Shown: positions 756 to 1,867 of the stretch, in pieces
Position numbering within the stretch: the stretch's first letter is position 1
Layout: every line of letters begins with the position of its first letter
NCBI GenBank assembly: GCA_963803995.1
Contig: CAWDOT010000005.1
Location: 179,154 to 243,153, forward strand
Direction: 5' to 3'
Length of the DNA: 64,000 nt
From: an uncultured Acidobacteriota bacterium
Lineage (GTDB): Bacteria > Acidobacteriota > Thermoanaerobaculia > Multivoradales > JAGPDF01
Translations under genes and position numbers: made by a program
Notes under the pieces: generated by a model
Databases searched by the model: none
What the model was told of the DNA's origin: nothing
Seen by the model: the letters and a program-made list of their open reading frames with translations, nothing else

Positions 756-977
756 TCAATCTTGAATGTTGATCTTCGCCGCCGCCGCGTAGCGGTCGCC
801 GAGGTACTTCTTGAGCGCCTCCCGGTTGCCGCCGCGGACGAGCGCCTTCTCGATCGCGGTCAGCCCGGCCTCGTCCATGAGCTTATCGGCGGCCGCGCCG
901 CCCTTCTTCATGGTCGCGCGCAGCGACGGGTGCTTCGAGAGCGCGACGAGAAACGCCTGCAGATCCTGATAGGCCAT
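756..977 (-). CDS. RiPP precursor peptide (73 aa) with borosin-binding-domain / Nif11-like leader and a short hydrophobic C-terminal core
   Basis: MAYQDLQAFLVALSKHPSLRATMKKGGAAADKLMDEAGLTAIEKALVRGG-NREALKKYLGDRYAAAAKINIQD. Helical leader resembling Nif11/NHLP and split-borosin SonA-type leaders, internal GG motif, Ala/Ile-rich C-terminus. Divergent from the methyltransferase at 1082, about 105 bp apart. Confidence 0.6.
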   Translation of the reverse strand: MAYQDLQAFLVALSKHPSLRATMKKGGAAADKLMDEAGLTAIEKALVRGGNREALKKYLGDRYAAAAKINIQD

Positions 978-1081
978 GACCTCTCCCTCCTCCGGAAACG
1001 GACCGACGAATCGCGAACTAATCTAGCATCCAATTCCCGGCAACGTGGAGCACGCCGGATCGGAGTCAGGGGGTATCGACC

Positions 1082-1867
1082 ATGACGATGCAGCAGGGGG
1101 TGCTGACGATGGTCGGCACGGGCTTCCGTGTCGCCGGCCAGGTCACCGAGGAGTCGCTGTCGGCGATCGTCGAGGCCGACAAGCTCTTTCACCTGATCCA
1201 GGACCAGGTGACCCACCGCTGGCTCGAGGAGTTGAACCCGACCGCCGAGTCGCTCTACGACTCCTACCGTCCGGGCCGCCCCCGCCGCGAGACCTACGAG
1301 GAGATCGTGGAGCGGATGCTGGCGCCGGTGCGCCTGGGACGACGGGTCTGCGCGGCTTTCTACGGCCACCCCGGCGTGTTCGTGATGCCGTCCCACGAGG
1401 CGATCCGGCGCGCCCGCGCCGAGGGGCACGACGCGGAGATGCTGCCCGGCGTCTCGGCGGAGGACTGCCTCGTCGCCGACGTCGGCTTCGATCCCGGCCA
1501 GCGCGGCTGCCAGAGCTTCGAGGCCACCGACTTCCTCATCCGCCACCGACGCTTCGACGCGTCGAGCGCGCTGCTGCTCTGGCAGATCGGCGGCATCGGC
1601 GTCTCCGACTTCCGCACCGAGGTGTTCTGGAATCCGCGCGGCGTCGCGATCCTCGCCGAGACGCTCGCCGGCACCTATGGCGCGGAGCACGAGGTGGTCG
1701 TCTACGAGGCGTCGCCCTACCCGGTCGGTTCGCCCCTCGTCCACCGCTGTCGGCTGGCCGACCTGCCCGCGGCGCCCGTCACCAGCGGCTCGACGCTGCT
1801 CGTGCCGCCGCTCGCCGACCGGGAGTCCGACCAGGAGCTGCTCGCGCATCTGCGCGGTCTGGCCTGA
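1082..1867 (+). CDS. Borosin-type peptide alpha-N-methyltransferase (SonM/OphMA-like, tetrapyrrole-methylase fold)
   Basis: Strong motif identity to OphMA/SonM methyltransferase domain: [13 protein letters not shown]..., [83 protein letters not shown]. 261 aa, intact. Confidence 0.8.
   Translation: [261 protein letters not shown]

Follow-up and report, generated by a model that had tools for sequence, protein, structure and literature searches.

We analysed a window of 64,000 nucleotides (the whole stretch of DNA considered here) from an uncultured bacterium, near the start of which a gene for a borosin-type N-methyltransferase (NMT) and a gene for a 73-residue peptide lie back to back. The first-pass annotation, made from the sequence alone, had read these two open reading frames (ORFs) as a split-borosin enzyme and its precursor. 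Both were confirmed in translation at the positions it gave: the NMT gene encodes 261 amino acids (1082..1867, + strand) and the precursor gene 73 amino acids (756..977, − strand; stop codon 756..758). The genes are divergent and 104 bp apart, and the region between them (978..1081) holds both ribosome-binding sites and presumably both promoters. The motif strings quoted for the NMT and the peptide tail GDRYAAAAKINIQD were likewise all found in the translations. The 3' end of a third gene, which encodes a receptor-type Hanks Ser/Thr kinase and is cut by the window start, runs convergently towards the precursor gene, the two stop codons lying 19 bp apart (1..736, + strand; the final 244 codons and the stop). 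The best genome matches to the NMT are metagenome-assembled genomes (MAGs) of Thermoanaerobaculia, at no more than 76% identity, indicating from sequence that the source belongs to the Acidobacteriota and resembles Thermoanaerobaculia.

The methyltransferase and its precursor peptide

Using Pfam, we found one domain in the NMT, TP_methylase (PF00590; E = 3e-19, 70.2 bits against a cut-off of 27.8, residues 8-210), and no other, with no fused core, borosin-binding domain (BBD), GGDEF domain or second NMT. When the protein was compared with all PDB sequences, SonM was the best match (E = 8e-59, 202 bits), followed by dbOphMA and OphMA (~1e-55; 191 bits for OphMA) and MroMA (4e-48), with the uroporphyrin-III methylase 1ve2 next at E = 2e-3 and 20 bits. 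NCBIfam scores were 32 for YabN (cut-off 525), 23 for precorrin-3B methylase (cut-off 391) and 15 for CysG (cut-off 400). The NMT aligns end to end with SonM residues 2-255, at 44.8% identity over 252 residues, and is identical at nine of the ten functional positions, which include the catalytic and 'lock' residues defined by Miller et al. (PMC8429565): SonM Y58, R67, R68, Y71, Y93, F99, E146, W166 and Q167 (window residues, for all of these except SonM R68: Y62, R68, Y72, Y94, F100, E147, W167 and Q168). The sole difference, E173, lies in the variable top clamp. Both borosin motifs used by antiSMASH are present, YGHP at 94 and DCLxAD, as DCLVAD, at 128. These sequence comparisons place the NMT in the clade of SonM and OphMA, by some 55 orders of magnitude over the tetrapyrrole methylases.

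Since spurious ORFs abound in this very GC-rich genome, the small ORF was examined independently. A purine-rich Shine-Dalgarno sequence, GGAGGAGGGAGAGGTC, stands directly 5' of its ATG, and its GC content at third codon positions (0.89, against 0.94 for the NMT gene) is typical of coding frames here. Twenty database homologues of 72-73 amino acids share 67-100% identity with it; compared with one that is 68% identical, it carries 20, 11 and 22 substitutions at codon positions 1, 2 and 3, the fewest being at position 2. A related small ORF adjoins the NMT gene in 31 of 41 Acidobacteriota loci, and the pairing is also found in L080-L087, among which L080, the 68%-identical relative, has the same arrangement as the window. 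These features indicate that the 73-residue ORF is a genuine gene and not a chance ORF of a high-GC genome.

We built a broader alignment (A2) from small ORFs beside the NMT gene in related Acidobacteriota genomes, and confirmed the SonA reference sequence against 7ltc_B. With the A2 profile, SonA was the top match in the entire PDB (E = 2.8e-10), ahead of LigA-type dioxygenase domains and of faint matches to the fused clasp in OphMA, dbOphMA and MroMA. Aligned directly by hhalign, A2 and SonA matched collinearly (97.4% probability, E = 1.6e-11; peptide residues 5-62 against SonA 3-57), and Pfam LigA, the family of SonA, was matched by 15 of 20 family members. The AF2 model of the precursor (pLDDT 72) contains five short helices and a disordered tail, in place of the three-helix leader described at first. 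The leader (residues 1-60; 798..977, − strand) is accordingly modelled as a BBD, a LigA-like bundle of five helices as in SonA, ending in a conserved K-K-Y-L-G motif; it is followed by a single tail of 12-13 residues that has no repeats, and the peptide has no signal sequence. An exhaustive profile search for the precursor family among 1.84 billion cluster representatives yielded only 30 related clusters at E ≤ 1e-3, the type found in the window being one 50%-identity cluster. The sub-family therefore appears small and lineage-restricted, with the caveat that gene calling in metagenomes tends to miss short ORFs.

At least 6,393 database proteins match the NMT at E ≤ 1e-30, and their source labels read 'hypothetical', 'YabN' or 'precorrin methylase', with some close homologues called 'precorrin-6B methylase'. 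Such labels, and the generic TP_methylase assignment that is all Pfam gives, would suit an ordinary tetrapyrrole or YabN-type methylase lying beside an unrelated LigA-like fragment or a spurious ORF. We give this explanation almost no credence: SonM and OphMA score ~200 bits against 20 for the best tetrapyrrole methylase, the NCBIfam scores of 15-32 bits lie far under cut-offs of 391-525, and the small ORF is conserved, has a ribosome-binding site, co-occurs with the NMT and has no LigB gene next to it. A reading of the NMT as a tetrapyrrole or YabN methylase was rejected on those scores and on the best PDB matches, SonM and OphMA. Also rejected was a reading of the peptide as the LigA subunit of a LigAB dioxygenase, since no LigB partner is present: its neighbours are the kinase gene with its tetratricopeptide repeats (TPRs), the NMT gene, a 137-codon ORF (ORF137) and MqnC; no dioxygenase family recurs in the loci and no LigB catalytic subunit adjoins the peptide. 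The first-pass annotation had named two findings that would speak against its reading, grouping of the enzyme with the CobA/CysG clade and absence of the small ORF from related genomes. By PDB E-values, NCBIfam scores and catalytic residues, the NMT is far closer to OphMA and SonM, so that the first objection falls, and the small ORF is kept beside the NMT gene in the 31 loci noted above. The split-borosin interpretation of the pair is thus supported. The sequence analysis establishes which family each protein belongs to, the fold predicted for the leader and the conservation of the pairing.

Predicted product and methylation sites

We consider it probable, with good confidence, that the NMT methylates the backbone of the precursor's C-terminal tail and that the two proteins form a type IV ('split') borosin pair, producing a RiPP (a peptide made on the ribosome and modified after translation); the exact sites, the cleavage point and any export are proposed with much lower confidence. 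The S-adenosylmethionine-dependent NMT, presumably a homodimer like SonM, would bind the five-helix BBD (residues 1-60), and the flexible C-terminal tail would be threaded into the clamp-covered active site, where one or a few backbone amide nitrogens would be methylated in the N-to-C direction. An unlinked protease would probably then cut after the conserved Y-L-G and before D61, to give a linear peptide of ~13 residues, DRYAAAAKINIQD.

The predicted core (residues 61-73; 759..797, − strand), the likely site of backbone N-methylation, was delimited by analogy. Precursor residues Y58-L59-G60-D61 align with L53-S54-G55-D56 of SonA, and mature shewanellamide A begins at SonA D56 (PMC10549244); because D61 aligns with D56, the predicted product runs from D61 to D73. 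The monoisotopic mass of this 13-mer would be 1447.742, 1461.758 or 1475.773 Da with 0, 1 or 2 methyl groups, at +14.016 for each. The ~13 residues that follow the conserved G|D compare with 16 in shewanellamide A and 9-13 in relatives, so the core is not, as had been claimed, unusually short.

Among 21 diverse family members, mean pairwise identity is 0.42 in the leader and 0.27 in the core or tail, and the tails share a pattern: Y or F at position 63 in 15 of the 21, A at 66 in 16, I or V at 69 in all 21, a polar residue at 70 and a hydrophobic one at 71 in 20. SonM methylates L63 and I65 of SonA, the bulky Y62 setting the first site (PMC11751858). By comparison, the most likely candidate sites are the invariant I/V69 and the hydrophobic residue at 71, which have an i/i+2 spacing like that of SonA L63 and I65; the residues after the conserved aromatic Y63 could also be modified, as Y62 directs methylation to L63 in SonA. 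Under the rules known for SonM, both assignments are defensible and the sequence does not decide between them.

Several observations weigh against this interpretation of the pair. Searched alone, the window peptide misses Pfam LigA, its sole match being Nif11 (E = 0.021), and finds nothing in the PDB by sequence; a PDB search with the narrow family profile (A1) did not recover SonA, hhalign of the narrow profile against SonA reached only 63.5% probability, and Foldseek gave no match. The link to SonA therefore depends on the wider family profile and on a model of moderate confidence. In the closest sub-family, the core is nearly as conserved as the leader, with Y63, A64, A65 and A66 invariant, which is atypical of a hypervariable RiPP core. 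Alignment of the core region is ambiguous, which makes the prediction of sites weak. Finally, in the Acidobacteriota loci examined, no gene family other than the kinase recurs in more than 5 loci around the pair; no protease, exporter or second tailoring enzyme is thus conserved nearby, and cleavage and release are assumptions.

These last points bear on an alternative in which the tail is N-methylated while the 73-residue protein is never cleaved or exported, the modified protein itself being the functional species, for example as an intracellular adaptor or regulator of the kinase. Within the sub-family, the whole sequence is highly conserved as far as the end of the tail (mean column identity 82%), the peptide lacks a signal sequence, its neighbourhood has no conserved protease or exporter, and the catalytic domain of the kinase is cytoplasmic, all as this alternative would have it. 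However, in the only type IV system characterised, SonA is processed to a 16-mer although its cluster encodes no protease (PMC10549244), the G60|D61 junction is conserved as in SonA, and the wider family shows more variation in the tail than in the leader (identity 0.27 against 0.42), as a leader and core layout predicts. We regard an uncleaved end product as unlikely, and favour a methylated tail that is released as a short peptide.

Some relatives carry precursors of other kinds. Beside NMTs of the same clade, a BBD leader may be joined to a long, repeat-bearing or Lys-rich tail (L019 9279-10082, − strand; L021 5420-5995, + strand; L023 5586-5981, + strand; L007 271-576; L008 5637-5942, − strand; L027 5688-6173, − strand), examples being eight copies of IKESTKIGKSSPRVA, PIVKK-type repeats and SLIRTALIRDPLIRDPKK. 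From their sequences, these variants, of which those in L019, L021, L023 and L007/L008 bear repeats, look like multi-core precursors on a type IV leader. In a second precursor class, HLGDDAPPGC precedes a very hydrophobic C-terminal tail (MILLI, FSLRV, CMLVFI or FLLFSTE); the Pro-Pro-Gly-Cys motif is conserved, and the genes of this class are mostly co-directional with the NMT gene and just upstream of it (L012 5711-5986; L015 5727-5987; L020 5711-5977; L028 5625-5954; L030 5508-6004, with two tandem copies; L033 5634-5885; L036 5336-5860). In L010, from a long-read MAG, the precursor gene (5640-6092, − strand) looks frameshifted, with a garbled N-terminal half and an intact C-terminal half (ending in KKYLGDQYAAASKVNIVD), and this is probably an assembly indel and not a mark of a pseudogene.

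A receptor kinase beside the pair

The product of 1..736 has TPR matches in Pfam and a near-cut-off match to TPR_END_plus. It is 90% identical to the C-terminal part of P0211, a kinase of 819 amino acids, and 74% identical to that of an 815-residue kinase in L080; both full-length proteins consist of Pkinase, one transmembrane helix and TPRs. The P0211 contig (JGI 3300075153) has the same arrangement as the window, with the kinase gene, a 73-residue peptide on the opposite strand and a 261-residue NMT. In relatives, the kinase is a Hanks Ser/Thr kinase of 800-900 amino acids with intact HRD and DFG motifs, a transmembrane helix near residues 290-330, ~480 extracytoplasmic TPR-bearing residues and a cytoplasmic catalytic domain. 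By homology, then, 1..736 codes for the TPR-bearing sensor that a receptor Ser/Thr kinase exposes outside the cytoplasm. The remaining 63 kb of the window contain no further Hanks kinase or TPR-end paralogue, and none of three generic TPR paralogues (30-36% identity) neighbours an NMT. In the source assembly, the kinase-tail gene is annotated as only 386 amino acids (P0141), its start being an internal GTG that corresponds to V434 of P0211; the half of the kinase gene upstream of the window may be frameshifted, pseudogenised or separately called. A class III/IV lanthipeptide-type role for the kinase was considered and rejected, as it comprises Pkinase, a transmembrane helix and TPRs only and lacks lyase and cyclase domains, and Ser, Thr and Cys are absent from the core DRYAAAAKINIQD.

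In 37 of the 41 Acidobacteriota loci, no more than 6 kb separate the NMT gene from the kinase gene or, where the contig is short, from its TPR-end fragment. Most of these kinase genes converge on the precursor gene, the stop codons ~20 bp apart, and in a sub-group rearrangement has placed the kinase gene on the opposite side of the NMT gene (examples of kinase coordinates: L001 3187-5676; L080 5148-7595). Of the two neighbours that the first-pass annotation proposed to survey, the 'TPR gene', which it had not recognised as the sensor half of a receptor Ser/Thr kinase, is therefore the conserved partner, and ORF137 on the far side of the pair is not conserved. The whole cassette of kinase, precursor and NMT genes is tandemly duplicated in L008 (2-6807) and L019 (3007-10683), and a second copy begins in L003, L014, L016 and L018, where it is incomplete or runs to the contig end. 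Between the L019 copies, the kinase domains share 99% DNA identity over 846 bp, whereas identity is only 57% for the NMTs, 29% for the precursor leaders and 20-50% for the sensors. This could reflect joint diversification of sensor, precursor and NMT around a common output domain, or else gene conversion confined to the 5' part of the kinase genes. The sensor-coding end physically adjoins the precursor gene, so co-inheritance alone could yield this pattern.

Elsewhere, a Hanks kinase, in general one that bears TPRs, was found within 6 kb of the NMT in 23 of 26 cyanobacterial loci, two of three Chloroflexota loci and both unclassified loci; the counts were 0-1 of five in archaea and none of two in Eremiobacterota. 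Architectures differ by phylum, being Pkinase-AAA_16 in cyanobacteria and Pkinase-NB-ARC-MalT-TPR-LuxR in one Chloroflexota genome (further kinase coordinates: L040 9629-; L043 1897-5295). In Microcoleus, the NMT is followed by two stand-alone TPR proteins, a LigA/BBD precursor and the kinase, in that order; in Oscillatoriales, the TPR proteins (L040 6877-7740 and 7779-9200) lie between the NMT and a LigA/BBD-type precursor, with the kinase next. TPR and kinase are thus separate genes in Oscillatoriales cyanobacteria and fused in Acidobacteriota. The tails of the Oscillatoriales precursors (L040 9298-9576; L064 7825-8163) are rich in DPxPDPDP repeats.

Genomic context suggests that the locus is a kinase-coupled variant of the type IV architecture. 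We tentatively raise the possibility, while judging it the less probable outcome, that kinase, BBD precursor and NMT form a peptide-signal and receptor module in which the methylated peptide, or the modified small protein, is a ligand or regulator of the adjacent kinase. If so, tandem cassettes with near-identical kinase domains and divergent sensors, precursors and NMTs would represent distinct signal and receptor specificities. The kinase also figures in another explanation, by which the small protein is a docking or regulatory partner consisting of a BBD only, and the true substrate is another protein, such as the kinase itself or a distally encoded precursor. Borosin clusters with distant or unrecognised precursors have been reported (10.1101/2024.01.09.574750), and the kinase is the only other conserved neighbour. 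Set against this, the peptide has the full SonA-like layout of BBD, Y-L-G-D and a short tail with hydrophobic patterning, the tail of SonA is a substrate, and each duplicated cassette has its own distinct tail. We consider a substrate other than the peptide highly improbable, and retain the tail of the 73-residue precursor as the predicted target of the NMT.

The remaining neighbours appear to lie outside the system. ORF137 (137 amino acids; 1868..2281, − strand), whose stop codon abuts that of the NMT gene with zero gap, has no Pfam, NCBIfam or PADLOC match, and its single-sequence AF2 model (pLDDT 43) is unusable. It was rejected as a component because it is restricted to the nearest relatives, occurring as 133 amino acids in L080-L085 and at 38% identity in L010. 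MqnC (2304..3491, − strand; TIGR03699, 459.5 bits against a cut-off of 428) is a radical-SAM cyclic dehypoxanthinyl futalosine synthase of housekeeping menaquinone biosynthesis. The 672-residue ORF after it (3421..5439, + strand) has no family match; it is 49% identical to a counterpart in L010, and L080 has a 626-residue gene with no Pfam match at the corresponding position. Both MqnC and this ORF were rejected, as they are not conserved with the pair in other genomes. A 185-residue ORF (5638..6195, − strand) resembles PmtA/OlsG-type lipid N-methyltransferases below threshold, at 71 bits where the cut-off is 250. On the P0211 contig, genes for MatE (an exporter), OPT (an oligopeptide transporter) and YhhN lie directly upstream of the kinase gene; they were rejected as a conserved exporter or importer because such families do not recur elsewhere among the Acidobacteriota loci examined. 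A promoter scan of the intergenic region 978..1081 found no sigma-70 consensus, so the promoter that the precursor and NMT genes were proposed to share is only presumed. One terminator-like hairpin was returned, at 888..902 (+ strand), inside the precursor ORF on the opposite strand, and is probably a chance match in GC-rich sequence.

Comparison with known borosins

Type IV is the commonest borosin architecture, accounting for 746 of 947 network nodes (~79%), and more than 1,600 split borosin clusters have been predicted (Imani et al. 2021, 10.1101/2021.12.24.474128); borosin detection rules exist in antiSMASH and RODEO (10.1101/2024.01.09.574750). The founding son cluster has no protease, and SonA is still processed (PMC10549244), so the missing protease that the first-pass annotation singled out is no anomaly. 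Its account overstated the novelty of the pair, as the architecture is the commonest of its kind and the features called unusual are normal. The window pair is therefore a further member of a known architecture, and by itself a routine genome-mining find; the conserved, duplicating receptor-kinase cassette is the part worth following. Two further aspects may be of use: the Pfam LigA model misses the BBD precursors of this sub-family, which matters for genome-mining tools, and the pair offers a compact enzyme and substrate with an Ala-rich core for N-methylation biocatalysis.

The closest characterized counterpart is SonM/SonA of Shewanella oneidensis MR-1 (shewanellamide A; PDB 7LTE, 7LTC and 9CGW). 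Both enzymes are discrete NMTs of ~260 amino acids with the same catalytic and 'lock' residues, and both precursors, of ~70 amino acids, join a five-helix BBD through a G-D junction to a short core whose hydrophobic residues follow an i/i+2 pattern. Neither locus encodes a protease, and each has a TPR-bearing transmembrane signalling protein next door. The window sub-family has diverged from SonA, with a three-residue insertion (G26-G27-A28) that accounts for the lack of a direct sequence match to SonA or Pfam LigA. The window genes are divergent and not co-directional, the core is Ala-rich with 13 residues and not 16, the neighbour is a Hanks Ser/Thr receptor kinase and not a GGDEF protein, there is no cation efflux pump, and the host is an uncultured Thermoanaerobaculia bacterium. 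Shewanellamide A is the only bacterial borosin product identified, and its authors write that the native role of such peptides 'remains elusive'.

More distant systems differ in construction. In OphMA, dbOphMA and MroMA (fungal type I, the omphalotin family), enzyme, clasp and core form one autocatalytic polypeptide, whereas the window enzyme and substrate are separate; the fungal product is heavily methylated, and a prolyl oligopeptidase closes it into a macrocycle, whereas the window core is short and has no macrocyclase nearby. Compared with LigA, the alpha subunit of protocatechuate 4,5-dioxygenase LigAB, and with the C-terminal domain of DesB, the window peptide has no adjacent LigB, carries a C-terminal substrate tail and pairs with an NMT.

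The kinase finds its nearest parallel in the GGDEF-TPR split borosins. The known signalling partner of split borosins is a GGDEF protein, and 56% of clusters contain GGDEF; in type X, the NMT is fused to a GGDEF protein that spans the membrane and carries TPR repeats in the periplasm (Imani et al., 10.1101/2021.12.24.474128). The searchable borosin literature and supplements yielded no mention of a Ser/Thr kinase partner; an earlier one may stand in Table 1 of Imani et al., which is in image form. These systems and the window share a borosin pair and a membrane-spanning signalling protein with its TPRs outside the cytoplasm; the window differs in that the output domain is a eukaryotic-like Ser/Thr kinase and not a diguanylate cyclase, and in that the three-gene cassette duplicates as a unit. 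Should the signalling proposal be correct, bacterial type IV borosins would signal through TPR sensors, coupled to GGDEF domains in Proteobacteria and to Hanks kinases in Acidobacteriota, cyanobacteria and Chloroflexota. The kinase link in three phyla, alongside the GGDEF-TPR proteins of Proteobacteria, yields a testable hypothesis, that N-methylated peptides are signals read by TPR sensors.

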